Below, piece by piece: positions 28,472-57,768 of a stretch of DNA of 64,000 nt. The stretch is from NCBI GenBank assembly GCA_016235665.1, contig JACRJI010000012.1, positions 218,543 to 282,542 on the forward strand. The letters are read 5' to 3'. Numbering within the stretch: the first letter of the stretch is position 1; each line of letters starts with the position of its first letter. Below the pieces are notes generated by a model. It was not told the origin of the DNA and ran no database searches. It saw only the letters and a program-made list of their open reading frames with translations. The position numbers and the translations under genes are program-made. The stretch comes from a candidate division TA06 bacterium. GTDB taxonomy: Bacteria; Edwardsbacteria; AC1; EtOH8.

Positions 28472-28506
28472 AATTCAAAATTCTGAATTCGAAATTCAGT
28501 ATTCAG
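28472..28506. repeat. Heptamer tandem repeat
   Basis: AATTCAA AATTCTG AATTCGA AATTCAG TATTCAG. Confidence 0.7.
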
Positions 28507-28523
28507 ATTATAAGGGAGGTAAG

Positions 28524-29771
28524 ATGGCCTACAGTTCCAAAGCCAGGGATTTCTATTCCGGAGAACTCCAGGGGATGAAGGACAAGGGGATCTTCAAGGA
28601 AGAACGATACATCCAGTCGCCCCAAGCCGCCAGTATCAAGGTGGAATACCCCAAGGGGGCCGAGCCCAAGCAGGTGCTGAACTTCTGCGCCAACAACTAC
28701 CTGGGGCTTTCCAGCCACCCCGACGTGGTCAAGGCGGCCCACGAGGCCCTGGATTCCCGGGGCTACGGGCTGTCCTCGGTCCGCTTCATCTGCGGCACCC
28801 AGGACATCCACAACGAGCTGGAGATCAAGATGAGCGAGTTCCTGGGCATGGAGGGCACCTGCCTGTTCCCCTCCTGCATGGAAGCCAACGCCGGGCTGTT
28901 CGACGTGGTGCTCTCGCCCGAGGACGCCATGATCTCGGACCGGCTGGTCCACGCCTCCATCGTCGACGGGCTGAAGCTGTGCAAGGCCCAGATGTTCAAC
29001 TACAAGCACAACAGCATGTCCCACCTGGAGGAGAAACTGCAGGAGGCCCAGAGCTGCCGCCTGCGGATGATCATCACCGACGGGGTGTTCTCCATGGACG
29101 GCGACATCGCGCCCCTGGATAAGATCTGCGACCTGGCCGACAAGTATGATGCCATGGTGATGGTGGACGACTCCCACGCCACCGGATTCATCGGCAAGAC
29201 CGGCCGGGGCACCCACGAGTACCACAATGTGATGAAGCGGGTGGACATCATCACCACCACCTTCGGCAAGGGTTTGGGCGGCGCCACCGGCGGCTCGGTC
29301 AGCGGACCGAAGGAGATCGCCGAGATGTGCCGGCAGCGGGCCCGTCCCTACCTGTTCTCCAACACCATGCCCCCGGCGGTGGTGGCCGGATCGCTGAAGG
29401 TGCTGGAGATCCTCTCCAAATCCACCGACCGCAGGGACAAGCTGGAGAAGAACACCGCCTACTGGAGGGCAGGCCTGACCAAGGCCGGTTTCGACCTGAA
29501 GCAGGGCGACACCCCCATCGTCCCGGTGATGCTGTACAACGCCAAGCTGGCCCAGGACATCGCCCGCGACCTGTACCACGAGGGGATCTACGTGACGGGC
29601 TTCTTCTTCCCGGTGGTGGCCCAGGGCCAGGCCCGGATAAGGACCCAGATCTCGGCCGGACATGAGATGGAGCATTTGGACAAGGCCCTGGCGGCCTTTA
29701 CCAAGATCGGCCAGAAGTACGGGATCCTGGGGCTGAAGAAGGACGAGATCATAGCCAAGTACGGGCTGTAG
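28524..29771 (+). CDS. kbl: Glycine C-acetyltransferase (2-amino-3-ketobutyrate ligase) paralog 1, divergent
   Basis: NFCANNYLGLS, SVRFICGTQ, TDGVFSMDG, DDSHA, TFGKGLGG (PLP Lys) and ARIRTQIS motifs. Confidence 0.9.
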   Translation: MAYSSKARDFYSGELQGMKDKGIFKEERYIQSPQAASIKVEYPKGAEPKQVLNFCANNYLGLSSHPDVVKAAHEALDSRGYGLSSVRFICGTQDIHNELEIKMSEFLGMEGTCLFPSCMEANAGLFDVVLSPEDAMISDRLVHASIVDGLKLCKAQMFNYKHNSMSHLEEKLQEAQSCRLRMIITDGVFSMDGDIAPLDKICDLADKYDAMVMVDDSHATGFIGKTGRGTHEYHNVMKRVDIITTTFGKGLGGATGGSVSGPKEIAEMCRQRARPYLFSNTMPPAVVAGSLKVLEILSKSTDRRDKLEKNTAYWRAGLTKAGFDLKQGDTPIVPVMLYNAKLAQDIARDLYHEGIYVTGFFFPVVAQGQARIRTQISAGHEMEHLDKALAAFTKIGQKYGILGLKKDEIIAKYGL

Positions 29772-29779
29772 GATTCCCC

Positions 29780-30003
29780 ATCCGCAGATGACGCAGATCA
29801 TCGCAGATTATACAATTATATTGGCTTACGTGTCATTGCGAGAAGGCCCAGTAGTTGACGAGTGAAGCAATCTAGACTATAATACAAGCCGTAATTTAGA
29901 GAGTTAATCCGCCGAAGCTGCCTAGGCCTATGCGTAGGAGGATAACAATGCGGCGGGAAGGGATTTAACTCCCGTCCCGCCGTTTGTGCTTACTTATGTT
30001 GGC
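29780..30003. repeat. Stack of four different palindromic/repeat motifs
   Basis: CCGCAGAT triplet (29780-29810); GTCATTGCGAG...GAAGCAATCT (29832-29873); ATCCGCCGAAGC...GCGTAGGAGGAT (29907-29943); GGCGGGA/TCCCGCC hairpin ending in GTTGGC (29952-30003). Confidence 0.7.
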
Positions 30004-33457: not shown

Positions 33458-33534
33458 GGGCGATTAGCTCAGTTGGTTAGAGCGTCTGCTTTACACGCAG
33501 AAGGCCGGGGGTTCGAGCCCCTCATTGCCCACCA
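33458..33534 (+). tRNA. tRNA-Val (anticodon TAC), CCA encoded
   Basis: Cloverleaf with acceptor GGGCGAT/ATTGCCC, D-arm GCTC/GAGC, anticodon stem TCTGC/GCAGA around loop TTTACAC, T-loop TTCGAGC and 3' ACCA. Confidence 0.97.
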
Positions 33535-33831
33535 CATTTGTGCAAAAATATTTGCACAATGCAAAGATTGCAGAAAGCCTAAAAATGGTCGGCCCGGAAG
33601 CATTATTATCAATGATAAATTATTTATCAGATATGATCACACTCCTGGTTATATAAATAATTTGATGTAACTATAAAACTAATTCCAGTTACGCCTTCTA
33701 TCGGGCAAATAGGAGCAATGTAATATAAGAGATAAGAAAACAAGGGTTTGCACCTGATATTCTCAATGATCCGCCTAGTTCTTTTCAAAAAGATTATGGT
33801 AAAAGTTTTATCATAATCTAAGCTATGTTTA

Positions 33832-33848
33832 TTGGCATAGATTATGCA
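33832..33848 (+). promoter_or_regulatory. Candidate sigma54 (-24/-12) promoter
   Basis: TTGGCATAGATTATGCA: GG(33834-35)-N10-GC(33846-47), placed so transcription would start just before SD GGAGG (33862) and ATG 33873. Confidence 0.6.
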
Positions 33849-33872
33849 AATATAGTTAAGTGGAGGTTTGAG

Positions 33873-34073
33873 ATGGATATTGCGGAGATTGGCGGAAATG
33901 CGGGATTGGTTTGGAAAGCACTGAATCAAAAAGGTTCCCAAACCGCAACCACACTTAAGAAACTTACCGGACTTGATGACAAGAATTTATGTCTTGCCTT
34001 GGGATGGCTGGCCAGGGAGGGGAAGATAATTTTTCACTCCGAAAAACGCAGCATCATGATAGTTCTCAAATAG
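33873..34073 (+). CDS. Small winged-helix protein (DUF2582-like)
   Basis: 66 aa; IGGNAGLVWKAL...LALGWLAREGKI signature; GGAGG SD. Confidence 0.85.
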   Translation: MDIAEIGGNAGLVWKALNQKGSQTATTLKKLTGLDDKNLCLALGWLAREGKIIFHSEKRSIMIVLK

Positions 34074-34260: not shown

Positions 34261-34779
34261 ATGAAGAGAAATATTTTTATCATTGTATTTATCCTGATGT
34301 GTCGCGGAGTTTCCCCGGCCCAGGTGAATTCTTCGCTGACGATAGATTTTAAAAACCCGGCTCTGATGAGCATGGAAATAGACCGGGCGCAGATATCGGT
34401 TCAGCTTACCAAAAACTTTGCTTCGGGACCGGTGGCATTGAGCAGTCCGGTGTTGGTCACCATAAAAAGCAATGTGCAGTGGGCGTTGACCGCTACTGCC
34501 AACACCGATTTCCTATGCATTGATAATGCCTTGAATACCATTCCCTGCAGCCAGCTGGAATTCAAGTCGCGGCTAAGCGGCAGTACCGAGAATGTCCGGG
34601 AACAGCAGGAAGAATACCTGAGTTTTGCCAAGGGCCAGGCCATGACCATCGCCCGGGGCGATGCCACGCCCAATGAGGGGCTGCATATCCTGGTGGAATA
34701 CCGGCTGGTGACCAATCTTAAAAATCCGGCCGGGAATTACAGCCTGCCGCTGATATTCTCCTTGAGCCCATCCCAATAG
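34261..34779 (+). CDS. Putative minor pilin-like secreted Ig-fold subunit
   Basis: Signal peptide; VTIKSNVQW and C-terminal PAGNYSLPLIFSL, typical of chaperone-usher/SCPU/WxL-like subunits. Confidence 0.6.
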   Translation: MKRNIFIIVFILMCRGVSPAQVNSSLTIDFKNPALMSMEIDRAQISVQLTKNFASGPVALSSPVLVTIKSNVQWALTATANTDFLCIDNALNTIPCSQLEFKSRLSGSTENVREQQEEYLSFAKGQAMTIARGDATPNEGLHILVEYRLVTNLKNPAGNYSLPLIFSLSPSQ

Positions 34780-34781
34780 TA

Positions 34782-37706
34782 ATGATGATCGTTCGGTTAT
34801 ACATAATGCTGATGCTGTCGGCTGGCATTTTAGCTCCGCTGACAGGCTGGGCTGTTCCCTTAACCGGCCAGTGGTCCGCCGGCATGTCCGGCAGAAAGGG
34901 CAGCGGGGGCCCCGACGCCTACGGCTACAGCTACATCGACAATAATCCGGTGCAGGCCGGCAGCCCCGCCTATGCTTGGATCGACACCACCGGGGCGGGC
35001 TGGACCACGGTTACCGGTCTGGGCGACGACAATTTTTCGGGGCCGTTCAGCATAGGCTTCACTTCTCCATTCCCATATTACTGGAATAACGCCACTCAGT
35101 TTTGGGTGCATGCCAACGGCGGCATCTCCCTGTCCCAGCCGTTAAGGGGCTGGACGCCTTACGTAACCGGAGAGAACGGCTTTCCCAACCTGGCCAAGCC
35201 CCAGGACCTGGTGGGCGGGTTGGGCATTGATCTTGATTTTACCAACGCCGGAAAATGCAAATACCGCTCCCGCAACGATTCACTGGTGGTAAGCTGGAAC
35301 GGGGTGCGGGGCTGGAACACCACGGCCTGGTACAATTTCCAGATACTGCTGACCAGGGCCGACAGCTCCATCAAACTGCAATACAACCGCATCGACCCGG
35401 CCTTTCCCTCGGCCAATGCCAGCATCGGCATAGAAAACAACAACGGCACGGTGGGGCTAAGTTACTATGACAATGGCGCTCCGGCTGACAATCTTCCGGC
35501 GGCGGGGCGGGCGGTCAGAATCTATCCGCCGGCCAGTTCTTCATACACTTCCATCGATGCCGGCGTGGCCTGGGCGCTTAATTCTCAAAGCGGGGCGGTG
35601 GTGGTGCATACGCTGGATATGTTCCAGCCCCAGGCGTCAGTGGCAAATTTCGGGACCGGACCGGCGGTCATTCCCAGAACCATCTGCCGGATAAGGAACG
35701 CGGCCGGAACGGTGGTCTACGCCGATACCATCCTGAACATAGCTTTGGCAAAGGGCCAGCAACAAGACACGGCCTTCGTCAAAATCTTCAACCCCACAAC
35801 GGCTGGAACCTATACCCTGGTGGTGCGGACCGAAGGCCTGGCCGAAAGCCCGGCCAACCCGGCCAACGATTCTGTCACCGTGGAACTGCCGGTGGTGGCT
35901 TACCAGTCGTGGCTGCGCTACGACGACAACACTGCCGAAACTTTTTGGGCCTGGAGCGGAGCCAGCGCCACCGCCCTCAAGGGCTTCGCCAACTATTTCG
36001 AGCTGAGCCGCTATCCGGTGATGCTGGACAGCGCCCAGGTCTACATCAATTACCGCAACAAGGACAACCTCTACATCCAGATCTACGATGCCACCGGACC
36101 CGGGGGAAGCCCTGGGGCCCTGCTGGCCACCGACACCTTGAAGCTCTCCGGCAATAACCAGTACCGGTGGATGTCGGTTTCCTACACCACCCGCAACGTG
36201 ACAGTGCCCACCGGGAAATTTTTCGTCTGCGCCAGGACTCCAAACCCCACAGTGCGCTTCGGTATGGATCAGGCCGCACCCGTTTCCCGCCGGAGCTGGG
36301 AGTTCACCGGCAGTTGGACGCCCTACCGGGGGCTGGAGGGCCAGGAAGTGATGATCCGGGCCAATGTTCACAAACCAAACAACTCAGCAATCTACGTTGA
36401 CGCAGCTTTCGGCAGTGATCTTAACCCCGGCACCAGCGCATTGCCATTGAAGACCATGACCCACGCAGTGGAGGTGATCAGCAGCACCGATACCTGCTAT
36501 GCCCGCAGCGGCAGTTACACCGGACGGCTGACATTCACCCCGCGGCATTCCGGCACCGCCGCCAACCGGACTGTGATCACCGCCCAAGCCGGGCATACTC
36601 CCCTGCTTTACGCCGGCGGGGCGGACGGCTCCGTCATCGACAGCGCAGCTTCCTACATTACCTTCAGCGGATTCACGGTTTATCCCGGCAGCGTGGTCTC
36701 GGCCTATTTTCAGGATGCCAATAACGTGCTTTTCACGAAAAACCGGGTTTACGTTCCCACCATGGGCTACGGCCTTTTGGCGGTGGGCTTGACCGCATCT
36801 CAGATCAAGGGCAACACCGTGGGGCCCTCCGCCGACAACATCAATCCAGCCGAAGGAGTCTATCTATGGGGAACGGACCAGGTCAGGATCGACAGCAACC
36901 GTATCTCGGGGATGATCGATGCCGGCATAGTGTTGGACTCGGACACCCGCACCACGGTCAGCCGCAACCTTTCTGATCACTGCTTTTTTGGGATAGACCT
37001 GTGGGGCAGCAGCGGCGACTCGCTCTACAACAACACCTTTGACGGCAACCTTAATTCCGGCATCCATGTTCAGGGCATCAGCGGGACGTTGGTCATCCGC
37101 AATACCAACAGTACCAACAATATTTATGGCATCTGCTGGGACAGCTCCGGGTCGGTTTCCAGCGACTACAATAATATCTGGAACAACACCTACAACTACA
37201 AAAACCCGCAAGCTCCGGGAGACACCAACGTTGTCCCGGCCGGCGTTCACGACATCTCGGCCGACCCCCAGTATACTGCCGCTTATCACCTGCTGTCCGC
37301 CAGCCCCTGCCGCAACGCCGGGATCCCGGTGGGCCTGCCCTACCTGGGAACCGCTCCCGACATTGGCGCCTACGAGGACTGGGCCAAACTCATGGACGCT
37401 GACGGAGCATACCCCGGAGGCTTGAGCCCGCAATTCGGCTTAAAGCAGAACCGGCCCAATCCGTTCGTCCGGGCCACCACCATCACCTATCAACTGCCGG
37501 CCGCGGGGGCGGTGAGCCTCAGGGTCTACAACATCACCGGACAGCTGGTGAGGAGCCTGGTAAGTGAAGTTCAGAATCCCGGGGAGCACAGCGTAAACTG
37601 GGACGGGAGGGACGCCGGCGGACGGACGGTAAGCGCGGGCGTCTACCATTACCGGCTGGTAAGCGGCGGCCAGACGCAGACGCGGTCGCTGCTGTACATC
37701 AAGTGA
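34782..37706 (+). CDS. Large secreted adhesin-like protein: beta-sandwich domains, right-handed beta-helix, C-terminal FlgD-Ig domain
   Basis: Signal peptide; GGPDAYGYSYID; YVDAAFGSDLNPG...PLKTM beta-helix cap with Asn-rich coils; QNRPNPF...GQLVRSL...WDGRD...GVYHYRL. Confidence 0.75.
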   Translation: MMIVRLYIMLMLSAGILAPLTGWAVPLTGQWSAGMSGRKGSGGPDAYGYSYIDNNPVQAGSPAYAWIDTTGAGWTTVTGLGDDNFSGPFSIGFTSPFPYYWNNATQFWVHANGGISLSQPLRGWTPYVTGENGFPNLAKPQDLVGGLGIDLDFTNAGKCKYRSRNDSLVVSWNGVRGWNTTAWYNFQILLTRADSSIKLQYNRIDPAFPSANASIGIENNNGTVGLSYYDNGAPADNLPAAGRAVRIYPPASSSYTSIDAGVAWALNSQSGAVVVHTLDMFQPQASVANFGTGPAVIPRTICRIRNAAGTVVYADTILNIALAKGQQQDTAFVKIFNPTTAGTYTLVVRTEGLAESPANPANDSVTVELPVVAYQSWLRYDDNTAETFWAWSGASATALKGFANYFELSRYPVMLDSAQVYINYRNKDNLYIQIYDATGPGGSPGALLATDTLKLSGNNQYRWMSVSYTTRNVTVPTGKFFVCARTPNPTVRFGMDQAAPVSRRSWEFTGSWTPYRGLEGQEVMIRANVHKPNNSAIYVDAAFGSDLNPGTSALPLKTMTHAVEVISSTDTCYARSGSYTGRLTFTPRHSGTAANRTVITAQAGHTPLLYAGGADGSVIDSAASYITFSGFTVYPGSVVSAYFQDANNVLFTKNRVYVPTMGYGLLAVGLTASQIKGNTVGPSADNINPAEGVYLWGTDQVRIDSNRISGMIDAGIVLDSDTRTTVSRNLSDHCFFGIDLWGSSGDSLYNNTFDGNLNSGIHVQGISGTLVIRNTNSTNNIYGICWDSSGSVSSDYNNIWNNTYNYKNPQAPGDTNVVPAGVHDISADPQYTAAYHLLSASPCRNAGIPVGLPYLGTAPDIGAYEDWAKLMDADGAYPGGLSPQFGLKQNRPNPFVRATTITYQLPAAGAVSLRVYNITGQLVRSLVSEVQNPGEHSVNWDGRDAGGRTVSAGVYHYRLVSGGQTQTRSLLYIK

Positions 37707-37793
37707 TCCAAAACTTGTTATTTAGGGAACAACATAAACATTAATTAATAACCAAAAAGAAAGGAAACGCATCTTTGGGAAAAGCATTCCTTA

Positions 37794-37811
37794 TCAGCAA
37801 GGCCTTGCTGA
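37794..37811. promoter_or_regulatory. Perfect 18-bp palindrome upstream of major pilin 1
   Basis: TCAGCAAGG-CCTTGCTGA. Confidence 0.5.
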
Positions 37812-37853
37812 AGGCAACTAAAAAAACAATAGAATAGAAAGGAAACTAAAACC

Positions 37854-38372
37854 ATGAGGAAATCATTACTGATCATAGCGGCGTTGATGCTGGCAACCAG
37901 CATGGTATGGGCCGATGCGATCACCGGACCTTCACCGGTATCCCACAACGTTACGGTAACCGTGATAGTTCCGGGACGGCTGGGTATCAACATTCCAGCT
38001 ATCGAGCATAACTGGACGCTTGACCTGGCATTAGATCCGACCTATCCGCCGGCCGCCCTGACCCCGTACCTGATCACCAACAATGCGACCGTGCAGATCA
38101 TCTCCAACAATGCCTACACTTACGGCTACACCGCTTCCATGACAACGACATTGACCAATCTGACAGTGGGCGACTTCCAGTATGACGCCACCGGCTGGAT
38201 CCCTGGCTGGGTAGGCTGGCAGAACTTCGGCGCGGCCGGCACCTTTGAGACCAGTCTGGCTGCGACCGCTGGCTGGGTCAACCGCAACATGATGTACCGG
38301 GTCAACCTTGACGGCACCGAGGCCGTGGGCACTGGCGTAATGACCCTGGTGCACACCATTACCCAGCCATAA
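37854..38372 (+). CDS. Putative major pilin subunit, copy 1
   Basis: Signal peptide (VWA-DA); N-terminal alternating HNVTVTVIV donor-strand-like segment; all-beta; strong SD AAAGGA. Confidence 0.65.
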   Translation: MRKSLLIIAALMLATSMVWADAITGPSPVSHNVTVTVIVPGRLGINIPAIEHNWTLDLALDPTYPPAALTPYLITNNATVQIISNNAYTYGYTASMTTTLTNLTVGDFQYDATGWIPGWVGWQNFGAAGTFETSLAATAGWVNRNMMYRVNLDGTEAVGTGVMTLVHTITQP

Positions 38373-38708
38373 TTATCACTACAGGCAAATGACAATTGGG
38401 GGGGCGCCATCTAAAAAAGCGCATTGGAAATTCTCATCCCGGCCCGGATCGAGGAATCGGGCCGGGGTGATGGGCTTTATGGTGGCGTTCCCCTCAGTGC
38501 ATGATAATTGATGCAGAGCACGTTGATCAGAGAGAACCAACGGGACAGCACCGGGTGACCTGGGATGGGCGGGATGCCCAAGGCTTGCCGGTCAGACCCG
38601 GCACTTGTTATTTTCGCATGCAGGTTTGAAATCAGCAACAGATGCGGTGGCTGCTGTTTAATCTATAGCGGCACAAGTTAAACTTTAAACTGAAAAAGGT
38701 AGCAGGAA

Positions 38709-39227
38709 ATGAAGAAACTACTAATTCTTCTTGCCATGTTGGCAGCAGCCACCGGCACGGTATGGGCCGATGCAGTCACTGGCACGTCGCCGGTATCCCA
38801 CAATGTAACCTTCACCGTGATCATCCCGGGGCGGCTGGGCATCAACATTCCTGCGGTCGAACATAATTGGACGCTTGACCTGTCACTTAATCCGTTATAC
38901 CCGCCGGCTGTGACCACCCCTTTTGTGATCACGAACAACGCAACCGTGCAGATCCTATCCAACAATCCGTACACTTATGGCTACACGGCCTCCATGACCA
39001 CCTCCCTGGCCAATCTGACCGTGAGCGATTTCCAGTATGATGCCACAGGCTGGATCCCCGGTTGGGCCGGCTGGCAGAGCTTCGGGGCGGGCGGCACATT
39101 CCAGACCGGGCTGACAGCAACGGCAGGCTGGGAGAACCGCAACATGATGTACCGGGTGAATCTTGACGGCACCGAAGATATCGGCACTGGAGTAATGACC
39201 CTGGTCCACATTATTACCCAACCGTAA
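38709..39227 (+). CDS. Putative major pilin subunit, copy 2
   Basis: Same length as copy 1; 27 differences over 152 mature residues by my count (about 82% identical). Confidence 0.65.
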   Translation: MKKLLILLAMLAAATGTVWADAVTGTSPVSHNVTFTVIIPGRLGINIPAVEHNWTLDLSLNPLYPPAVTTPFVITNNATVQILSNNPYTYGYTASMTTSLANLTVSDFQYDATGWIPGWAGWQSFGAGGTFQTGLTATAGWENRNMMYRVNLDGTEDIGTGVMTLVHIITQP

Positions 39228-39249
39228 TTACAACTATAGGTACAGGTAT

Positions 39250-40059
39250 ATGAAGACGAGCGGGCATCATCTGAAAAAGATCATATTGACAATCTTTATC
39301 CTGACCATGGTTGTGGGATCCGGCCGGGGGCTGGGCTTTTTGGTGACCCCACCCCGCTGTGAATTGACGATGTCTTCGGGTCAAAGCCAAACCGTGATCA
39401 TAAACATAATCAATAAAGACAGCACTGCACCGCTGAGGTTAAAGGTTTCGGTCAAAGGCTGGGAGAAAGAAAAAAACGGCCAAATCACCTACTATGATCC
39501 CGCCGGCAAGAACCGTTCCTGCGGAAACTGGCTGGAGGTCAATCCCTCCGAATTCGAGATGCCGGCTGGCGGTCTTGAGGCAGCGAGGTTTACCGTTACC
39601 GTACCGGAAACGGTAAACGGTTCATATTGGGCAATAATTTTCTTTGAGAGCCAGCCAGACACAATGGTAAAAACCACCGTGGGGGTTAGGTTTGTAGGCC
39701 GGGTGGGCGTTTCGGTGTATGTCAACATCGACGGCACCCTGCAATATCAGTCGGAAATGACGGGATTATCCTATAAAAGAGGGGGATATAAAAAGCACGA
39801 GTTTAAAGTGGGAATCAAGAACGGCGGCAATGCATATTTCAGGCCCAAGGGCACAGTGGAGATCAAAGATGCCGCGGGCAAAAAGATAAATACCACACCT
39901 TTTCCCGATGACCTGGTAGTCCTTCCCGGTGCGCAGAACGACATAAAAATAATCATCAATGAAGTGATCCCACCGGGACACTACACAGCCAATATCACCA
40001 TCGACTGCGGGCAACCGGAGCTGCTGGAGGGCGAGACCTCTTTTGAGGTTGTGCCTTGA
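39250..40059 (+). CDS. Putative pilus-assembly chaperone (PapD/CooB-like two-Ig-domain protein)
   Basis: Signal peptide; VTPPRCEL, WLEVNPSEFEM, GSYWAIIFFES, RVGVSVYV and KNGGNAYFRPKG patterns. Confidence 0.7.
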   Translation: MKTSGHHLKKIILTIFILTMVVGSGRGLGFLVTPPRCELTMSSGQSQTVIINIINKDSTAPLRLKVSVKGWEKEKNGQITYYDPAGKNRSCGNWLEVNPSEFEMPAGGLEAARFTVTVPETVNGSYWAIIFFESQPDTMVKTTVGVRFVGRVGVSVYVNIDGTLQYQSEMTGLSYKRGGYKKHEFKVGIKNGGNAYFRPKGTVEIKDAAGKKINTTPFPDDLVVLPGAQNDIKIIINEVIPPGHYTANITIDCGQPELLEGETSFEVVP

Positions 40060-40129
40060 TAAGGCATTTGCTTTCAACCCGGCCCGGCCGCCTGCATCTG
40101 CCGGGCTTCCTTATTTATAAGGACTAAGC

Positions 40130-42550
40130 ATGGTCCGCTCAGTCTACATAGCGGCCTGGCTGTCGGTCCTTTTGGTGTTGGCCGGGTTTAACCAGGCCCG
40201 GGCTTATAATTTCATGAATCTGGAATACCGCGACTACCTTTATCAACCCAGCGGGCAGAGGTATTATCAGGCTTATTATCGCATTGGTTCCGACCAGACT
40301 GCCGGGGATTTTCGCACCCGGTATTTTTTGGAATTCAACGACAATGCAATCAGGGATCCGGCCTTGAACCGGATCGAGATGCAGTTCTCGGGATGGAAAT
40401 TCCTGGGGGGAAGGTGGGACGCCAGTCTGGGCGATATCACCATGTCCCCGGTCTCCCCGGGCCAGAGTTCGGTTTCCCTGCGAGGGGCCAAACTGGTGAC
40501 CGGATGGGGGCAGAAGATTTCCGCCGAAACATTCGCCGGAAGGATACCGGACCTTTATCGCCGGGCCAATTTTCCCACCTTCAATAACAATAATATCTTA
40601 ATTTCCCAAGGGATCAAGGGGATATTATCCAAACAATTTAATTTCAGGTCCAGATTTTCCTACCGCTGGGATAAAAAGGCCGAGCTGTATTACAGTTATC
40701 TTAAGGTCAGGGACCTTTACGAATGGGCCAACCGGGTGGAATGGGATCTCCGCCCAAACTTAAGGGGGCAGCACCAGCTGGCTTTAAGCCATAACCGGGA
40801 TTTTAACGGCATCCGGCATACCGATATCAGCGGAAGCAGCAATTGGGAATATTTCAACCCCTGGTTCCGCAGCTCGGCCGATTACCAATACCGGGGCCCG
40901 GGCTACATCAGTTCCGCCAACGACGGCAGCGGTTGCGGAGAAAACCAGCTGGCGTTTTCCTCCAGCTGGGTGCTGCTGAAAAAGGCCACTCTTTTAGGCA
41001 ACTACAGCCAAAAATGGGTAAAGGCTCCGGAGGACACCACCCTGTTCTGGAACCAGTTTCAGAAGTGGGGCACCGGCATTCAAACGGCGATCCCCCGATG
41101 GCCCTTGTTCAGCTATAAATTCGACCGTTATACCTGGGGATACCACCGGGGCCGGAAGACCTTTCAGGATATGGTGCAGTATACCAACAGCTTTGAACTG
41201 CAGTACAACTGGCGGCTCTATCTTTGGCGGCTGGGTTATCAGCTGCAGGAGTCCCGGGATCTCATTGCCGGAAGCCAGAGGCTCTGGCACCAGGGATCGT
41301 TGACCGGAGGTTACCGCATGGGGAGCTTTGGGCTGAACCTGGATCAAAGGGTCAGCCGTTATAACAGCCCCAAGCAATTGCAATGGTCACAGAATTTCGG
41401 TTTTGACCAGCGCTGGGGCCGGCTGCTCAACACCTCCTTCTCGGCTAACTGGTGCCAGGGCAACTCCGAAACCTACCACTGGAAGACCGAGAACTGGGGC
41501 TGGAGCCTTAAGGCTGGGACGGACCGGACCAGCGGATGGAACCTGTCGGCCGACCTCGGCCAGAACTATTATTATTATTCCGGTATGGGCCCGGTGGTCA
41601 GGAACACTAACTGGGGGTTCAAGCTTGAGCGGCGCTTTGACGGCTGGGGCCAGCTGGTGAGCCTGGGCCAGATAAACGGGCGGGTTTACGAGGACGCCAA
41701 CGGAAACATGACCTATGACAACGGCGACAAGGGTATTCCCGGAATACCGATAATGATAGACGGGAAACAGGCCGCCAAGACCGGCCGCAGCGGAGAGTAC
41801 CGGGTATTGGGGGTGGCCGCCGGCAGCCATTCGGTGAAAATGGACATTTCCCAGCTGGACGCCGGGATGGATCCCAGCATCGGGGGCCAGCGCCGGTTCA
41901 CCACCTTCGGGGTCTGGGGCCCCAGAGTGGATTTTCCCCTGGCCCCTCTCAACGAGATATATGGCAACGTTTTTTTGGATGAAAACCGCAACGGCATCCG
42001 CGATGAGGAAGATGCCGGACTGCCAGGGGTATTTGTGCTGATGGGAGACAACCGCCGGTTTACCGCCAGCGACAATGAAGGGGATTTTATCTTCCATAAT
42101 GTCCAGCCGGGAAGATACCGGGTCTTTATCGATCCCCGCTTCCTGCCCGACACACTGGCCGTGACTGGGGAGCAACAGCGTTTCATTGAAGTAGAGAACA
42201 AGAACGATGTAGGCGGCCTTTACTTCGGGATCGGCAAAAAGGTAAGGCCGGTAAGAAAGATGGTCTTCGCTCCATCCCAAGTGACGGAACCCAGTCCAAA
42301 AACCGTTCCGGTAAGACCGGGCCGGTCTAAAACCGGCCAGCCGGCCAAACAAATCTCCAAGGCTTCGGCGGAAGAGATTAAAAGGCTGTATGACCAGGGA
42401 ATCAAACAATATTCAACCGGAGATTACCAGCGCGCCATGACCACCTGGAACCAACTGCTTAGGATTGATCCCGGAAACGGCGAAGCCAGAAAAAACAGGG
42501 ACAGGACCAAAGGGAAGTTGGATGCCCTGCAGAAGATCAAAGGCCAATAG
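40130..42550 (+). CDS. Putative usher-like outer-membrane beta-barrel with two SdrD-B/prealbumin-like domains and a C-terminal TPR
   Basis: Signal peptide; about 480 aa of Y/W/F/Q/N-rich amphipathic strands; GRVYEDANGN and GNVFLDENRNG repeats; Pro/Lys linker; TPR-like helices. Confidence 0.65.
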   Translation: MVRSVYIAAWLSVLLVLAGFNQARAYNFMNLEYRDYLYQPSGQRYYQAYYRIGSDQTAGDFRTRYFLEFNDNAIRDPALNRIEMQFSGWKFLGGRWDASLGDITMSPVSPGQSSVSLRGAKLVTGWGQKISAETFAGRIPDLYRRANFPTFNNNNILISQGIKGILSKQFNFRSRFSYRWDKKAELYYSYLKVRDLYEWANRVEWDLRPNLRGQHQLALSHNRDFNGIRHTDISGSSNWEYFNPWFRSSADYQYRGPGYISSANDGSGCGENQLAFSSSWVLLKKATLLGNYSQKWVKAPEDTTLFWNQFQKWGTGIQTAIPRWPLFSYKFDRYTWGYHRGRKTFQDMVQYTNSFELQYNWRLYLWRLGYQLQESRDLIAGSQRLWHQGSLTGGYRMGSFGLNLDQRVSRYNSPKQLQWSQNFGFDQRWGRLLNTSFSANWCQGNSETYHWKTENWGWSLKAGTDRTSGWNLSADLGQNYYYYSGMGPVVRNTNWGFKLERRFDGWGQLVSLGQINGRVYEDANGNMTYDNGDKGIPGIPIMIDGKQAAKTGRSGEYRVLGVAAGSHSVKMDISQLDAGMDPSIGGQRRFTTFGVWGPRVDFPLAPLNEIYGNVFLDENRNGIRDEEDAGLPGVFVLMGDNRRFTASDNEGDFIFHNVQPGRYRVFIDPRFLPDTLAVTGEQQRFIEVENKNDVGGLYFGIGKKVRPVRKMVFAPSQVTEPSPKTVPVRPGRSKTGQPAKQISKASAEEIKRLYDQGIKQYSTGDYQRAMTTWNQLLRIDPGNGEARKNRDRTKGKLDALQKIKGQ

Positions 42551-42575
42551 CATGAATAGAACATCAAGAAAAAGT

Positions 42576-43661
42576 ATGAACCGCATTTTATTTGCCATAG
42601 TATTTTCAGCCATGATGATCCAACTGGCCGCCGAGGTTCCGGCTCAGGCCACGCCCGGCCTGATGGCCTGGCCCAGTAAGATCGATCTATCGGTCAAGGC
42701 TGGCGGTGCCAAGACCGGTTATGTAAATGTGCAGAACCAGGGTTTGAACAAAGTGCGGCTAAAGGTTAACATAATGAACTGCCGGATGTCCGAGGATGGG
42801 GCGATAATTTACACCAACAAGAACGTCTCATTCGGCTGCAGCCAATGGCTGAAGGTTGAGCCGGCGGAATTCAGCCTTTCACCCCGGGCCAGCCAGCAGG
42901 TACTATACTCCATAGAAGTCCCCCAGAGCGCCCAGGGCACCTATATGGCGGTGATTCTTTTTGAGACCAATGTTTCAAACGGCGACTATCAGAACCTGCC
43001 TGGTGCGCTGGTAGTTGAGAATGTGCCGGGAACGGGCCAGAAAAGGGCAGACCTGACGGAGCTTTCCTTTCAAAAAGGCATTGACGGGGGAAACGCCAAT
43101 GCAGTGCTGGGGATCAGCAACTCCGGGTCTATGATATGCAATCCCACCGGCACACTGGAGGTCACCGATCTCAAACGGGGCGGTAAGACGAACTTTGCCA
43201 TCAACCGGGAAAATGAACCAGTGCTGCCAGCCTCTATGCGACGCTTCCGTATCCCGCTGGAAGGGCTGTATAACGGCCAGTATAAAGTGCTGGCGGTGGT
43301 GGACTATCAGGGCAGCGAGATACTGCAGGGCGAGGCCACGGTGACCATCAATGCCGGAGAGCTTATATCCCAAAGCAACCGGATGGCCACCGGCCGGGCC
43401 AAGGGAGGAGACCCGGCATCGTCCGAAGGACAAAAGAAGACTGCCGGGCCGGCCGAGCCGAAATCCTCTTCTTCGCTTTCTTCCGCCGAGATCGAGTCCC
43501 TGAACCGGGAGGCGGTGAAATTATATTCCGATGGGGATTATGAAAAAGCTTTAGCCCAGTGGCAGAAAGTGCTGCGGGCCGATCCAGGTCACAACGGAGC
43601 AAAGAACGGGGCCGAACGCGCCCGGAAGAAAATTGAAGCCTTGAAGAAGGCCAGGGGATAA
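42576..43661 (+). CDS. Second chaperone-like protein with C-terminal TPR
   Basis: Paralog of 39250-40059 (WPSKIDL, WLKVEPAEF, GTYMAVILFET, ISNSGS..CNPTG) plus a TPR tail. Start is ATG 42576 or 42552. Confidence 0.65.
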   Translation: MNRILFAIVFSAMMIQLAAEVPAQATPGLMAWPSKIDLSVKAGGAKTGYVNVQNQGLNKVRLKVNIMNCRMSEDGAIIYTNKNVSFGCSQWLKVEPAEFSLSPRASQQVLYSIEVPQSAQGTYMAVILFETNVSNGDYQNLPGALVVENVPGTGQKRADLTELSFQKGIDGGNANAVLGISNSGSMICNPTGTLEVTDLKRGGKTNFAINRENEPVLPASMRRFRIPLEGLYNGQYKVLAVVDYQGSEILQGEATVTINAGELISQSNRMATGRAKGGDPASSEGQKKTAGPAEPKSSSSLSSAEIESLNREAVKLYSDGDYEKALAQWQKVLRADPGHNGAKNGAERARKKIEALKKARG

Positions 43662-43686: not shown

Positions 43687-43717
43687 AAAAACCGGTTTGC
43701 AATGCAAACCGGTTTTT
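43687..43717. terminator. Bidirectional terminator closing the pilus locus
   Basis: AAAAACCGGTTTGC-AAT-GCAAACCGGTTTTT. Confidence 0.88.
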
Positions 43718-43732
43718 CATATTGGCAGCGAA

Positions 43733-45796
43733 TTACCGCAACAAAAGCACTTTATGCACCAATCGTTCATCTTTGGTTTGCAGCCGCAAAAAATAAACGC
43801 CATTGGGCAGTCTCCTTCCGCCGTCGCCGGTTCCATTCCAAAGGAAAGGATGTATGCCGCTGGTCATCCGGCTGACAGGCATAATCGATCTGACCTGCTG
43901 CCCTGAGATGTTGTAGACCGAGAGGCTGGCCGGACCTGGTTTAGTCAACTGTATATTGATCATTGTTCGTTGGCTGAACGGATTGGGGGCGGTACTGAGA
44001 GACATTCTGCCGGTCAAAATATCACCGGATATATCATTGCCTTCAACCCCGGTAGGGGAGTTAAGGATTGCCGTGACCGAATCACGGACAGTGCCCGTTT
44101 GATCGAACACTTTCACCAACGCCCGGTAGGTTAGGCTGCTGTCCAATCCGGCGTTATTAAAGATCAACCGGATGCTGTCGCTGTCCGGCGGGGTAAAACT
44201 GCCGCTGGTTTTGGATAAGGTCAGCCAGGGCGCATTGTGGGGGCGGATATCATACCCTACCAGCCGGTCGGTTGCATCCTGCAGCAGGCCCAGCAGGATG
44301 CCCCGCCCCGGCACCAAACCGGTGCTGAAGGTGGCGCCTCCAGCGCAGGCGTTGGCCGGGTCGGCGGCCTGGCACTGGAACGAAACTCCGGTATAACTGC
44401 CGGAGGAAGGGTCTAACTGGCTGGCTTGAACCTGGGGAAATCCATCCTGGCTGAAGACCCAGAGCCAGGGGCCGTCGGGAGCGGTGGCATCCAGGGCCAG
44501 GCCGAAGATGTTCTTGCTGTTGGGCCAGGAGTTTGCCAGGCTTCCGTCGCGGTTTACCAGGCGGATATCATCGGAATAATTGGCGGTATAAAAACAGTCG
44601 GCCGCCGGATCATAAGCAAGTCCCCGGCAGGGGCTGGTATGGGCGTATATCTTCAATCCGGTGGGCGCACCGCTGGCAGTGTCTATCTGTTCTATCGAAT
44701 CGCCGGAAGCTGCGTAAAGGTAAGAGCCGTCAAAACACAGATCGCGCCAGCCCCAGCCGTTTCCGGAAGGCTGGGGATAGCTGGCCAGCAGGGAGCCGCT
44801 TTTATCAAGCTTGTAAAGATAATTGGGATCGGAGGCGGGATCGCTGGCCGCTCCAGACACCCACAAATTAGTGCCGTCGTATTCCACCCCCAGGCAAAGG
44901 TTGTCGCCGGTGAGGCCGCTTACCTCCAGACCCCAAAGGGAATCGGAGAACGATTTGCTTTTAGCCGTCTGCTCCGGCCATTCCACAGTATATTGCAGGT
45001 CCCTGGTTCCGCCTATCTCCAAATGAAGGTATTGGGTGGAATCGATCGAATTCGGGGACAGGAGAACGCTGACCGATTCCGCCGGGTTCAAAACTACCGC
45101 GGGGTAGCCGAGGGAAAAGTTCACCGCTATTGTCGCACCTACCGTGAGGCTGACGGCGGTCACCACGGAGTCAAAGTAACCCGCCTTGCCGGCCGTAATG
45201 GTATAGCTGCCGACGGGGGCCGAGGGGAAAGCGTAATTGCCGGAAACAGAAGTATCTGACAGAAATACACCCGCGCTGGCGGCGGTGATGACCGCCCCGT
45301 CCAGGGGGATGCCCCCGGCGTTGTCATCAGTGACAAAACCCTCGATCCGGCCGGTATATTCAAAGGTGGTGAACTCCTGCTGCAGGGTGTCGTTGAAAGG
45401 GACTTCGTCCCCGGCCAGGACCAGGCAAGCCGTGGCGGTATACTTCATCAGCGATTCCGGAGCGAAGGAGGTCCCTAAAACAAGCTGCTTTCCAGAACCC
45501 GGGGCCAGGCTGTCGGTCATCATCAGGGAATCGAAATAGACCCTTTGGGCCAGGCTGTCCTCTATGGCAAAGTAAGCCCAAACGCTGTCCTCGTAATAAA
45601 TGCCAAAATTCTCCAAAGTGAAGGCCGGGTAAAAGGGCATTCCCGGCGGCACCAAAAGGTCGGCCGGAGTATCGATGGAAACGACTGCCAGGTCGTGTTC
45701 CACCCCCGGCCCGTAATTGTCCTGCCGGATTACTGCGGCCGGAGATAGTGATGAGGCTGCGGCCGCCAGCATAATAAGGATAAGAAAGTTTCTCAT
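43733..45796 (-). CDS. Secreted protein: CARDB-like, carboxypeptidase-regulatory-like and beta-propeller-like regions, C-terminal FlgD-Ig domain
   Basis: Signal peptide from ATG 45796 (MRNFLILIML); GRIEGFVTD...GSYTITAGKAGY; APNPFS...YNISGQQV...WNG...NGVYFLRL. Confidence 0.75.
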   Translation of the reverse strand: MRNFLILIMLAAAASSLSPAAVIRQDNYGPGVEHDLAVVSIDTPADLLVPPGMPFYPAFTLENFGIYYEDSVWAYFAIEDSLAQRVYFDSLMMTDSLAPGSGKQLVLGTSFAPESLMKYTATACLVLAGDEVPFNDTLQQEFTTFEYTGRIEGFVTDDNAGGIPLDGAVITAASAGVFLSDTSVSGNYAFPSAPVGSYTITAGKAGYFDSVVTAVSLTVGATIAVNFSLGYPAVVLNPAESVSVLLSPNSIDSTQYLHLEIGGTRDLQYTVEWPEQTAKSKSFSDSLWGLEVSGLTGDNLCLGVEYDGTNLWVSGAASDPASDPNYLYKLDKSGSLLASYPQPSGNGWGWRDLCFDGSYLYAASGDSIEQIDTASGAPTGLKIYAHTSPCRGLAYDPAADCFYTANYSDDIRLVNRDGSLANSWPNSKNIFGLALDATAPDGPWLWVFSQDGFPQVQASQLDPSSGSYTGVSFQCQAADPANACAGGATFSTGLVPGRGILLGLLQDATDRLVGYDIRPHNAPWLTLSKTSGSFTPPDSDSIRLIFNNAGLDSSLTYRALVKVFDQTGTVRDSVTAILNSPTGVEGNDISGDILTGRMSLSTAPNPFSQRTMINIQLTKPGPASLSVYNISGQQVRSIMPVSRMTSGIHPFLWNGTGDGGRRLPNGVYFLRLQTKDERLVHKVLLLR

Positions 45797-45834
45797 TTTT
45801 CTAATGGTAAAATTAAAGGGAATCATTGGAAACC

Positions 45835-45906: not shown

Positions 45907-47670
45907 TTAACTGAGGCTGGCCAGGGGGATATTGATCCAGAAACGGCTGCCTTTTCCCAAAACGCTTTCGGCTCCGGCACTTCCCCCGTGAAGCTCGGCG
46001 ATGTGTTTGACGATGGCCAGTCCCAGGCCGGTACCGCCCATTTCCCTGGACCGGGCCCGGTCCACCCGGTAGAACCGCTCGAACAGGCGGGGCAGGTTTT
46101 CCCGGCTGATGCCGGGGCCGTCGTCGGATACCGTCAGTATCAGGGCATTTTCCCGGATCTCGGCCGCCAGGTCTATCCGGCTGTTTGGGGGCGAGTACTT
46201 GACGGCATTGTCCAACAGGTTGCCCAGGGCCGAGAACATCTTATCGGGATCTATCTGGACTGGCTGCTGACCGGTCCGGTCATCGGTATGAACCAGATGG
46301 CTCTTTTCGGCGATCCGGGGTTTTAGATTATCAACGGTCCGTTCCAGCAGGGGGCCTACAATAGAGGGGATCTTATTGAGGGTGTAATTACCCGACTCAA
46401 TGGCTGAGAGTTCCAGCAGGTCGTTAACCAATTTGCTCATCCGCAGTGATTGGGTGTGGATCCGGTTAAGAAAATCCTCCAGCTGTTCCCGGTTGTTCAG
46501 GGCGCCGTCCAGCAGGGCTTCGGAAAAACCATTGATGGCCGAAAGCGGGGTCTTGAGCTCATGGGAAACGTTGGCCACGAAATCCTTGCGGATCCGTTCC
46601 AGCATCTTCAGCCGGGTGATGTCAGAAGACACCAACACCCAGCCCCGGGGGCCGTCCTGGTTCCTGATGGCGGCTATCCGGACGATGTAATATCTTTTTT
46701 CCCACTCCAACTCGATCCATTCCCGCTGTTCCTTTATCAGCTGCTCCATGATGGGGCTGCGGATGGCCTCCAAAAGCAAGCGGCCTAAAGCCTGCCGTGG
46801 GTCCAGCCCAAACATTTCGGCGGCGGCATGGTTCACCATCCTGATCACCTGACGCTGGTCCAGGGTTATCACCCCTTCGCTCATTCCCTCCAGCACCGCG
46901 GCCAGGTTGCTTTTTTGCTCGGACAGGTCGTTGACCGTGCCTTCCCAGGACTGGGCTAGCTGGTTAAGGGTCCGGGCTACCAGGGCCGTCTCCCGGCTGC
47001 CTCTGGTCATGGGCGCCCGGGCTTTCAGATCGCCGGATGAAAGCCGGCAGGCGGTCTGTTCAACATCCCTGATGGCCTCGATCTCGGGGTGCCAGGCCAG
47101 GCTGACCAGCAGCCAAAGCAGGGCCGCGCTCAGAACCAGCCCGATGATTACCCCCGCCAGCAGGTGTCTCTGGTAATTTATCAAACCCTCCCAGGGCCAG
47201 GCTATCCGGCAATAACCCCACAGAGTGTTTCCCCGTATGATCGGAACGGCAAAATAGATCATCTCCACTTTAAGGCTCCGGCTGTACCGCACCGTATGGC
47301 CCTGGCCTTTTTGTCTGGCCTGGGCGACCTCCGGCCGCCCCAGATGGTTGTCCATGGCCTTTAGCCCGGCAGCATCCTCATCCGAATCGCCCAGCACCCG
47401 GCCCAGGCTGTCGATGACGGTCACCCGTTTGGCCAGGGCTGCGGCCTGGACCTGGGCCAGGGAATCAATGTTGGCTCCCGGGTCATCCGCCAGCTTTTGG
47501 GAGATCACGGAACTTATCAGCTGGGCCTGTCCCTGCAGCCCGTCCAGGGCCAGGCTCAGCAGGTGCTGCCGGGTGTTGAAATAAAGGTAAAGGGAGAATC
47601 CGCTCAACACCACCAGGACCGAGACCAGTCCGGCCGAGGCCAGTTTTATTTTAAGGCTGGGGTGCTTCAT
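45907..47670 (-). CDS. phoR: PhoR-like sensor histidine kinase (TM-HAMP-PAS-HisKA-HATPase)
   Basis: DNHLGRPEV periplasmic motif, FVANVSHELKTPL, NLLDNAVKYS, FERFYRVDRARSR and GTGLGL motifs. Confidence 0.92.
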   Translation of the reverse strand: MKHPSLKIKLASAGLVSVLVVLSGFSLYLYFNTRQHLLSLALDGLQGQAQLISSVISQKLADDPGANIDSLAQVQAAALAKRVTVIDSLGRVLGDSDEDAAGLKAMDNHLGRPEVAQARQKGQGHTVRYSRSLKVEMIYFAVPIIRGNTLWGYCRIAWPWEGLINYQRHLLAGVIIGLVLSAALLWLLVSLAWHPEIEAIRDVEQTACRLSSGDLKARAPMTRGSRETALVARTLNQLAQSWEGTVNDLSEQKSNLAAVLEGMSEGVITLDQRQVIRMVNHAAAEMFGLDPRQALGRLLLEAIRSPIMEQLIKEQREWIELEWEKRYYIVRIAAIRNQDGPRGWVLVSSDITRLKMLERIRKDFVANVSHELKTPLSAINGFSEALLDGALNNREQLEDFLNRIHTQSLRMSKLVNDLLELSAIESGNYTLNKIPSIVGPLLERTVDNLKPRIAEKSHLVHTDDRTGQQPVQIDPDKMFSALGNLLDNAVKYSPPNSRIDLAAEIRENALILTVSDDGPGISRENLPRLFERFYRVDRARSREMGGTGLGLAIVKHIAELHGGSAGAESVLGKGSRFWINIPLASLS

Positions 47671-48353
47671 TCTTCCTCTTTAAGTTTGTATCCGAAGGAT
47701 TTGACCGTCAGGATGGCCGCGTCCAGCAGGGGGATCTTTTTCCTCAGATGCCGGATATGGACGTCCACCGTCCGGTTGCCGCCGTAGTAGTCCTGGCCCC
47801 AGACGGCATTGAGGATCTGGTCCCGGGAGAGCACCCGGCCGGGGCGCTTTAGCAGGTACTCCAGCAGGCCGAATTCCTTGGCGGTCAGTTCCACTGCCTT
47901 TTTGCTGACGCTGACCAGGTGGCGTTCTCCGTCCAGGATTATCTTTCCGTAATTCAATACTGCCTTGGCTTCCTCCGGGGGCTGGTTGCGGCGGAAGACG
48001 GCCCGGATCCGGGCCATCAGTTCCTTGGGGCTGAAAGGCTTGGTCAGGTAGTCGTCGGCCCCCATCTCCAGGCCCACAATCTTGTCTGTCTCCTCTGCTT
48101 TGGCGGTCAGCATGATGATGGGCAGCCTTTTGGTGGCCGGCTCGGAACGGAGGATCCGGCAAAGTTCCAGGCCGTCCATCCCGGGCAGCATCAGGTCCAG
48201 CACCAGCAGGTCCGGGGGCTGGCGGTGGATGCGCTCCAGGGCCCGTTGGCCGTCGGAAATGGACTCGGACCTGAAGCCGTCCTTTTTCAGATAATGCTCC
48301 ACCAGGTCGGCGATGTCCCGCTCGTCCTCCACTATATAAATAAGCTTGCTCAT
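47667..48353 (-). CDS. phoB: PhoB/PhoP-like OmpR-family response regulator
   Basis: VEDE, LDLMLP, MLTAK, DYLTKPF and RTVDVHIR motifs; overlaps phoR by 4 bp. Confidence 0.92.
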   Translation of the reverse strand: MSKLIYIVEDERDIADLVEHYLKKDGFRSESISDGQRALERIHRQPPDLLVLDLMLPGMDGLELCRILRSEPATKRLPIIMLTAKAEETDKIVGLEMGADDYLTKPFSPKELMARIRAVFRRNQPPEEAKAVLNYGKIILDGERHLVSVSKKAVELTAKEFGLLEYLLKRPGRVLSRDQILNAVWGQDYYGGNRTVDVHIRHLRKKIPLLDAAILTVKSFGYKLKEEE

Positions 48354-55156: not shown

Positions 55157-55783
55157 ATGGGTTTCTCCCTGATCCCCAAGGAAGTGCAGTTTTTCGATCT
55201 TTTTGACAAACAAGCCGCTGTGATCAACATCGCCGCCAAAAGTTTCAAGGAGCTGGCTGTCAGTGGGACCTTCGATGATGCCGGCATCGAGCGGATGAAG
55301 GACATCGAGCACCAGTGCGACGAGATCACCCACGACATCATCGACAAGCTCAACCGCTGTTTCATCACTCCCTTTGACCGTGAGGATATCTACAAACTGG
55401 CCCTCGAACTTGACGACTTGGTGGACATGCTGTACAGCGTGGCCAAGAGGATGCGGCTATACAAGATAAACGGGGTCCACCCGGACATGATCAAGTTTTC
55501 CGAGCTGATAGAACAGGCGGTCGGCTGTCTGGGCAAGGCCCTGAATAGTCTTCGCAACAGCAAGCACCACAAACCCATTTTAGTCTGCTGTATCGAGATC
55601 AACCGGCTGGAGAACGAGGGCGACCACCTGCGGGATCATGTGATAGGCGATCTTTTCGAGAATGAAAGTGATGCCATGGCGGTCATGAAATGGAAAGAGA
55701 TCTTTGAAGGTGTGGAAACCTGCCTGGACATAAGCGAGGATATCAGTAACATCATAGAATCCATACTGGTGAAGAACGCCTGA
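55157..55783 (+). CDS. DUF47 (PhoU-like Pit accessory) protein
   Basis: EHQCDEITH, FITPFDREDI, LENEGD and WKEI motifs; stop overlaps the pit start. Confidence 0.92.
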   Translation: MGFSLIPKEVQFFDLFDKQAAVINIAAKSFKELAVSGTFDDAGIERMKDIEHQCDEITHDIIDKLNRCFITPFDREDIYKLALELDDLVDMLYSVAKRMRLYKINGVHPDMIKFSELIEQAVGCLGKALNSLRNSKHHKPILVCCIEINRLENEGDHLRDHVIGDLFENESDAMAVMKWKEIFEGVETCLDISEDISNIIESILVKNA

Positions 55784-56778: not shown

Positions 56779-56803
56779 AAAGATCGTCATTTTTGCCTTA
56801 ATC

Positions 56804-56833
56804 AAAAGAGGGTGCAGGTGCCCCTCTTTTTTT
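56804..56833 (+). terminator. Terminator after pit
   Basis: AAAAGAGGG...CCCTCTTTTTTT. Confidence 0.75.
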
Positions 56834-56835
56834 GT

Positions 56836-56852
56836 TTAACACGGATTTAACA
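56836..56852 (+). promoter_or_regulatory. Pho box upstream of pst operon 2
   Basis: Two perfect TTAACA at 56836 and 56847 (11-bp spacing). Confidence 0.7.
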
Positions 56853-56933
56853 TTGTGCTAATGCCCTTAAAATATTGGAGTAATATACTCATCATGCAAA
56901 GGATCAACCAATTCCAAACCAAGAGGAGGCAAG

Positions 56934-57728: not shown

Positions 57729-57733
57729 AACTA

Positions 57734-57768
57734 ATTCCTGAATACGGAATACTGAATTTTGAATACTG
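57734..57768. repeat. Heptamer tandem repeat
   Basis: ATTCCTG AATACGG AATACTG AATTTTG AATACTG. Confidence 0.65.

Follow-up and report, generated by a model that had tools for sequence, protein, structure and literature searches.

The window analysed here, a stretch of 64,000 nucleotides from a candidate division TA06 bacterium (contig JACRJI010000012.1) whose source is a groundwater metagenome, carries a plus-strand locus of seven genes, O1 to O7, which we studied as a candidate system for the assembly of a surface fibre. O1 (34261-34779) encodes a pilin-like subunit of 172 aa, in which a signal peptide is followed by the N-terminal strand SSLTIDF, and O2 (34782-37706) a 974-aa secreted beta-helix protein ending in a sorting domain of the type IX secretion system (T9SS) kind, which we regard as a putative accessory. 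Two further pilin-like subunits of 172 aa are encoded by O3 (37854-38372), whose candidate donor strand is the N-terminal SHNVTVTVIV, and by its tandem paralogue O4 (38709-39227); the spacer between them holds the remnant of a decayed T9SS-type C-terminal domain on the same strand (38519-38665). There follow O5 (39250-40059), encoding a 269-aa periplasmic chaperone-like protein of two immunoglobulin (Ig) domains, similar to WxLIP and devoid of a membrane anchor, O6 (40130-42550), encoding an 806-aa candidate outer-membrane assembly or secretion protein, and O7 (42576-43661), encoding a second chaperone-like protein of 361 aa, paralogous to O5 and extended by a linker and a TPR-like tail. A bidirectional hairpin that resembles an intrinsic terminator (43687-43717) follows the last gene, and beyond it the convergent minus-strand gene O8 (43733-45826) encodes a 697-aa secreted protein with a CarboxypepD_reg domain and a T9SS-type tail.

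We take the seven genes to be a real operon since the order O1-O2-O3(-O4)-O5-O6-O7, together with the convergent O8, recurs in relatives on independent contigs, at identities of 35-93% for O6; O8 keeps its place beside the operon in every close relative. The mechanical open reading frame (ORF) of O7 begins at 42465, but the relatives all begin with MNRILF, and the start was therefore set to 42576, which leaves no overlap with O6. Each of the seven products has a single N-terminal hydrophobic segment and no further membrane helix. The arms of the terminal hairpin (43687-43701 and 43703-43717) form a perfect 15-nucleotide inverted repeat (100% complementary) with an A-run upstream and a T-run downstream, and its situation between O7 and the convergent O8 indicates a bidirectional function; a consensus terminator scan missed it. 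These features had largely been anticipated in the first-pass annotation of this DNA: the seven genes on one strand, the signal peptides of their products and the closing terminator are borne out by ORF calls, hydrophobicity and the inverted repeat, the two tandem 172-aa paralogues (O3 and O4) are 78% identical, and the SdrD_B domains, TPR tails and FlgD_ig tail are all recovered with Pfam and NCBIfam. Its expectation that such proteins would be annotated only as hypothetical is correct for most relatives, which are unnamed or hypothetical, but not for a 93%-identical homologue of O6, named SdrD B-like domain-containing protein. The host can be considered diderm, as the window also encodes LptD (3194-5644).

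The small proteins O1 and O3/O4 are seemingly unrelated in BLAST. When the profiles of the O1-like and O3-like families are compared with signal peptides removed, they are homologous (hhalign 99.3%, E 3.7e-20), and the same alignment places SHNVTVTVIV of O3 over QVNSSLTIDF of O1; by these comparisons O1, O3 and O4 are members of one family, predicted to be Sec-exported. No Pfam family is matched among 111 O1/O3-type relatives. A reading of the O1 C-terminus, Y-x3-L-x-F-x-L-x-P, as a WxL-like motif found no Pfam support and was discarded. The AlphaFold model of mature O1, built from a 111-sequence alignment, has a mean predicted local distance difference test (pLDDT) of 89.6 and a predicted template modelling score of 0.82, and leaves the first 15 mature residues outside any strand or sheet. 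Its Foldseek matches in the PDB are led by TLP-1a (E 3e-5), TLP-1b (2.4e-4) and CfaB (1e-3), with TasA, the FimH pilin domain, CS17, FimG, CsuE, FimA, PapA and the Csu pilus among the later ones, so that the bacterial matches are almost entirely strand-exchange pilins; the template modelling scores are moderate, at 0.51 by query length (0.51/0.35 for the best match). The WxLIP1 chains (9i25, 9i1y) are not among the 50 Foldseek matches listed for the model. The model shows O1 to have a predicted donor-strand-exchange pilin fold, in agreement with the earlier view of the small proteins as pilin-like, and the CfaB to which they had been compared is the third-ranked match. Most of the fibre would probably consist of O3 and O4, with O1 as a minor subunit.

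O5 and O7 are paralogous (26% identity, E 5e-26), and in both the signal peptide is the sole hydrophobic segment, without a C-terminal membrane helix. Their family has no Pfam model of its own: among 62 diverse members, WxLIP_PGBD (DUF916) is matched in 24, WxLIP_HBD in 3 and PapD_N in 3. In the window, the Pfam WxLIP scores of O5 and O7 are 17.7-23 bits, below the gathering threshold of 27.3 bits, the highest being WxLIP_PGBD in O7, which also has a TPR_2 domain; PapD_N matches neither protein. A profile of the 62 sequences searched against the PDB recovered the EfmWxLIP1 chains (9i25_C, 9i1y_A; E 6e-10), with both Ig domains covered, the next match being EcpB, a chaperone of E. coli (E 5e-4). 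Compared by hhalign with six E. coli pilus chaperones (FimC, EcpB, EcpE, SfmC, YadV and YehC), the family scores 95.9%, or 90.4% (E 1.4e-6) with signal peptides trimmed; the match spans the N-domain only, no PapD_C similarity was found for the family, and Arg36 of O5 falls over the arginine of FimC ATRVIY only when signal peptides were left in the alignment. In view of these matches, O5 and O7 can be described as WxLIP-like, remotely PapD-like and unanchored. The comparisons show them to be predicted soluble periplasmic proteins of two Ig domains, with homology to WxLIP and, remotely, to chaperones of the PapD type, and at the sequence level they are nearer to the Gram-positive WxLIP (DUF916-DUF3324) than to PapD. 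The earlier designation of both as chaperone-like is supported by remote PapD-type relatives (hhalign 90-96%), but WxLIP is the closer kin. The O7 tail is homologous to that of O6 (hidden Markov model (HMM) of O7 on O6: E 2e-14), each tail comprising ~60 residues (43470-43661 and 42362-42550, respectively).

A word-based search gave 11 close relatives of the chaperone-like protein, and a HMMER scan of 1.84 billion representatives gave 13,015 clusters of the chaperone family at E <= 1e-3 and 5,890 at E <= 1e-10. With this number of representative clusters, the lineage is not unique. Member lengths group near 265, 365 and 520-590 aa, the longest being tandem double modules; many representatives of 507-619 aa (e.g. 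P0022, P0024, P0026 and P0027) consist of two complete two-domain modules in tandem.

The large protein O6 comprises a signal peptide, an all-beta, aromatic-rich region (residues 26-505; 40205-41644), two SdrD_B/CarboxypepD_reg beta-sandwich domains recognised by Pfam (residues ~506-700) and the TPR-like tail (residues 745-806). Region 26-505 has neither a Pfam match at E <= 10 nor a PDB profile match; it is 18% aromatic, and its beta-amphipathic alternation (z = 4.0) can be set beside that of FimD (2.4), EcpC (3.0) and LptD (2.5). The identification of the 806-aa protein as an usher, made in the first-pass annotation, does not hold. The O6 family aligned to five E. coli ushers (FimD, EcpC, SfmD, HtrE and YehB) with an hhalign probability of only 0.6%, the Usher, PapC_N and PapC_C families of Pfam are matched by none of 13 large proteins (O6 and 12 homologues), lax thresholds included, and a PDB profile search with the O6 region returned no usher. 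We infer that O6 is a candidate outer-membrane assembly or secretion protein of a non-usher type.

The same gene context is found across phyla. Species-representative genomes, when scanned, gave 23 loci, distributed over Ca. Eisenbacteria, Omnitrophota, Cloacimonadota, Bacillota and metagenome-assembled genomes (MAGs) without classification; these loci were then analysed with our own ORF calls and HMMs. At 12 diderm loci the chaperone-like gene is followed directly by a gene for a protein of 610-936 aa with the same two C-terminal domains as O6, and in the group L008-L018, as in the lineage of the window, O1-like and O3-like pilin genes lie upstream of this pair. The conserved core of pilin, pilin, chaperone and large protein is present in Eisenbacteria, Omnitrophota and unclassified MAGs, one pilin-family protein carries the name candidate division WOR-3, and the gene order is kept from 93% down to ~25% identity across phyla, in line with the subunit, chaperone and large-protein order first proposed. 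Usher families are not matched by the large proteins of the distant diderm loci either. The large proteins of Omnitrophota carry an additional N-terminal PF13629 'pilus formation protein' domain; a TPR is also found at the N-terminus of the Omnitrophota large protein. At the Bacillota loci (L028:9809-10912, L029:8692-9693), the chaperone-like protein, encoded after an O1-like gene, has a C-terminal membrane helix like those of WxLIP and of the PamC/D chaperones of the candidate phyla radiation (CPR), and in the Bacillota loci examined no large protein follows the chaperone gene. The presence of the large protein in diderms and its lack in Bacillota is the pattern expected of a protein that serves the outer membrane. 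Two genomes, those of L012 and L017, have second pilin-pilin-chaperone sets (L013 and L018) without a large downstream protein, the complete set lying elsewhere; these second copies may be orphan subunit and chaperone cassettes.

The best structural match of the O1 model leads to fibrils observed in nature. TLP-1a and TLP-1b (PDB 9ikj, 9ikk; CryoSeek) are tubular fibrils of 8 nm whose structures were solved from pond water after filtration, which polymerise by N-terminal donor-strand exchange and are orphan structures, their producer and assembly genes not being known (PMC11494351). In the literature consulted we found no description of the present gene set, nor of the genes behind TLP-1. A metagenome scan with 66 residues of TLP-1b as query yielded 23 loci (L035-L057) with genes 49-75% identical to TLP-1. 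On five of the six contigs having upstream sequence, an O5-family gene lies directly upstream of the TLP-1-like gene (E 1e-38 to 1e-40), and on all four that extend downstream a TLP paralogue (hhalign 98.5%), devoid of the NVTVT N-terminus, and an SdrD_B/CarboxypepD_reg protein of 1171-1185 aa are encoded after the pilin. The gene context as defined in this analysis, an O5-family chaperone with a large SdrD_B protein, is therefore common to the window and to the TLP-1-like loci, as is a second pilin-like paralogue, and the N-terminal motifs are similar (EQNVTVTMDLQPVLQL versus SHNVTVTVIVPGRLGI). The two differ in that TLP-1 protomers are ~90 residues longer and that TLP-1-like loci place the chaperone before the pilin, with a single chaperone gene and the longer large protein. 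Candidate assembly loci for TLP-1 are L045:6663-14319, L051:8080-15119 and L041:9929-15106. Very large T9SS-tail proteins are encoded upstream in the TLP-1-like loci and a separate 781-aa TPR protein downstream; on L045 only, a Uma2-family endonuclease gene (L045:8112-8711) stands between the chaperone and pilin genes.

Chaperone-assisted strand-exchange pili are textbook systems of the Proteobacteria, and the usher is their single outer-membrane machine. The window locus resembles the chaperone-usher pili (CFA/I with CfaB, ECP with EcpB and EcpE, and Csu) in the predicted fold of its subunit, the remote homology of the chaperone N-domain and the way in which the genes for subunit, chaperone and large outer-membrane candidate succeed one another, and ECP likewise has two chaperones. 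It differs from them in its TPR tails, in a second chaperone domain that is DUF3324-like and not PapD_C, and in O6, which has no usher homology and in which neither an usher N-terminal domain nor a plug is detectable. The Pam pili of CPR bacteria, compared here by description, are also strand-exchange pili outside the Proteobacteria with two PapD-like chaperones in the operon, but their chaperones are membrane-anchored, their pilins have two domains and there is no outer-membrane component (bioRxiv 10.64898/2026.03.03.709456). A further strand-exchange fibre, TasA of Bacillus subtilis (PDB 8aur), is the seventh-best fold match of O1 (E 3.8e-3), but it polymerises without a periplasmic chaperone or an outer-membrane partner.

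We propose, as a moderately probable interpretation, that the product of this locus is a surface fibre of non-canonical class, assembled by donor-strand exchange with the help of chaperones. As O6 shows no usher homology, the locus does not belong to the chaperone-usher family; it probably works like a chaperone-usher system nonetheless. The donor-strand-exchange pilus of chaperone-usher type proposed in the first-pass annotation is thus retained as regards pilin fold, chaperone homology and gene order, but not as regards the usher. In such a mechanism, O5 and O7 would shield the open groove of subunits that have just been exported and deliver them to O6 in the outer membrane, where the C-terminal beta-sandwich domains and TPR tail of O6 would face the periplasm and dock the chaperone-subunit complexes. 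The chaperone would then be displaced by the N-terminal strand of the next subunit to arrive (SHNVTVTVIV in O3 and O4, SSLTIDF in O1), and the growing fibre would leave through or alongside O6.

Several observations weigh against this proposal. The AlphaFold model of O6, built from a 7-sequence alignment, is unusable (pLDDT 33), and in hhalign the large proteins of four sublineages cannot be aligned with one another in their N-terminal parts. The alternation test also gives a high value (z = 3.8) for O5, an Ig fold, so that it cannot tell a barrel from a sandwich, and the outer-membrane role of O6 consequently rests on context. The sequence link between TLP-1 and O1/O3, at first 77-79% in hhalign, dropped to a non-significant 1-10% after removal of the signal peptides and was rejected, and the PDB profile comparison of the O1/O3 family with TLP-1 is likewise not significant (E 0.15-1.7); the connection to TLP-1 therefore rests on the fold and the shared gene context. 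The sequencing runs that contain the locus are DNA runs only. WxLIP itself has been proposed as a surface anchor and binder, its role as a chaperone not being proven; an AlphaFold prediction in the same analysis inserts a WxLIP strand into the partner protein (PMC10599100).

A surface complex that does not polymerise, equivalent in a diderm to the WxL/Csc clusters of Gram-positive bacteria, with O6 as its outer-membrane anchor and no fibre, is a reading that we consider unlikely. It would draw on EfmWxLIP1 being the closest solved relative of O5 and O7, homologous over both Ig domains, and on the WxL clusters of Enterococcus, Lactobacillus and Listeria (PDB 9i25, 9i1y), in which small proteins likewise occur together with one large protein and a WxLIP (PMC10599100). 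The small proteins and an enzyme-like O2, whose beta-helix is pectate-lyase-like, would then be held on the surface by the WxLIP-like proteins. In contrast to those clusters, however, the window proteins have no WxL domain and no C-terminal membrane helix, and the diderm host has an extra large beta-rich protein; the WxL family (PF13731) is matched by 0 of the 111 pilin-like relatives at E <= 1. Furthermore, the O1 fold resembles fibre-forming pilins rather than other Ig folds, the same chaperone family flanks TLP-1-like genes, TLP-1 being a fibre, and O2 is kept only in the close lineage (L001, L004, L006 and L007) and is absent from the distant loci.

A strand-exchange fibre could also be exported by T9SS or another route, with O6 as a periplasmic or outer-membrane scaffold or anchor and not a pore. 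The proteins with T9SS-type tails that adjoin the locus of the window as well as the TLP-1 loci are in keeping with this, as is a barrel in O6 that is unproven by either the model or the alternation test; since the pilin-like proteins themselves have no T9SS tail, and no conserved partner other than the large protein is present in diderms and missing in the Bacillota loci examined, we hold such a route to be decidedly unlikely. It is very improbable that the locus is a true but highly divergent member of the classical or alternate chaperone-usher class with O6 as an usher homologue. The gene order, the two C-terminal beta-sandwich domains of O6, which recall usher CTD1/CTD2, and the presence of CfaB and EcpB among the best matches would speak for it, but the hhalign value, the 13 large proteins without an Usher, PapC_N or PapC_C match and the PDB profile search all speak against it. 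As for functionally unrelated secreted proteins that are merely neighbours, this notion is scarcely credible given a gene order that persists to ~25% identity between phyla.

O2 and O8 appear to be surface proteins of the T9SS type encoded alongside the locus and are putative accessories. Pfam finds Beta_helix/NosD in O2 at residues 649-804, and FlgD_ig/TIGR04183 is found at residues 892-969 (37.4 bits, cutoff 23); O8 has the TIGR04183 type A sorting domain (39.3 bits, cutoff 23). The role of O2 as an adhesin of FlgD-Ig type, which had been put forward earlier, is unsupported, and a reading as a two-domain pilus adhesin was rejected, as O2 contains no pilin domain (hhalign <= 1.4%) and its tail is generic: an S8 peptidase (13948-15939, plus strand) and a 1179-aa Kelch/Big_5 protein (16010-19549, minus strand) of the window also end in FlgD_ig-type sorting domains, so that this tail can be seen as a general surface-sorting tag. 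One frame of the 336-nucleotide spacer between O3 and O4 reads GQHRVTWDGRDAQGLPVRPGTCYFRMQV*NQQQMRWLLF, against GEHSVNWDGRDAGGRTVSAGVYHYRLVSGGQTQTRSLLY in the O2 tail. This remnant of a T9SS-type/FlgD_ig C-terminal domain, broken by a stop and about half identical to the O2 tail, is probably the relic of a duplication of O3/O4 that once took in the 3' end of an O2-like gene.

With regard to the surroundings of the operon, a tRNA-Val (TAC) gene (33458-33534) and an 82-aa ORF (33825-34073) lie directly upstream. The counterpart of this ORF at L006 belongs to PF10771/DUF2582, and it may encode a small DNA-binding regulator. On the other side, a histidine kinase and response regulator pair (45907-48353, minus strand) adjoins the locus, and PhoU_div, PHO4 and phosphate-ABC-type genes are deduced further downstream (55157-58669, plus strand) from ORF lengths that match the annotated L001, L004 and L006. 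Two minus-strand ORFs, of 432 aa (28503-29801) and 506 aa (62092-63612), have no Pfam match at E <= 1e-5; the former overlaps an opposite-strand ORF of equal length.

At the evolutionary level, a wider hypothesis can be put forward tentatively, as possible rather than probable: the locus and its relatives would form a widespread, undescribed strand-exchange pilus pathway of the Fibrobacterota-Chlorobiota-Bacteroidota (FCB) group, Omnitrophota and other uncultured diderms, which employs WxLIP-type chaperones together with an outer-membrane assembly protein that is new and not an usher, builds the TLP-1 fibrils of fresh water, and joins WxL clusters, CPR Pam pili and chaperone-usher pili in one ancient chaperone superfamily. 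The known logic of subunit and chaperone appears here with a different, unclassified large partner in place of the usher, and the ~13,000 representative clusters of the chaperone family are mostly unnamed in public data. The locus also offers a testable genetic origin of the fibrils TLP-1a and TLP-1b, and it would tie the poorly understood WxLIP proteins of Gram-positive bacteria to a chaperone role. Should O6 be a new fibre-secretion pore, it would represent a new type of outer-membrane assembly platform.

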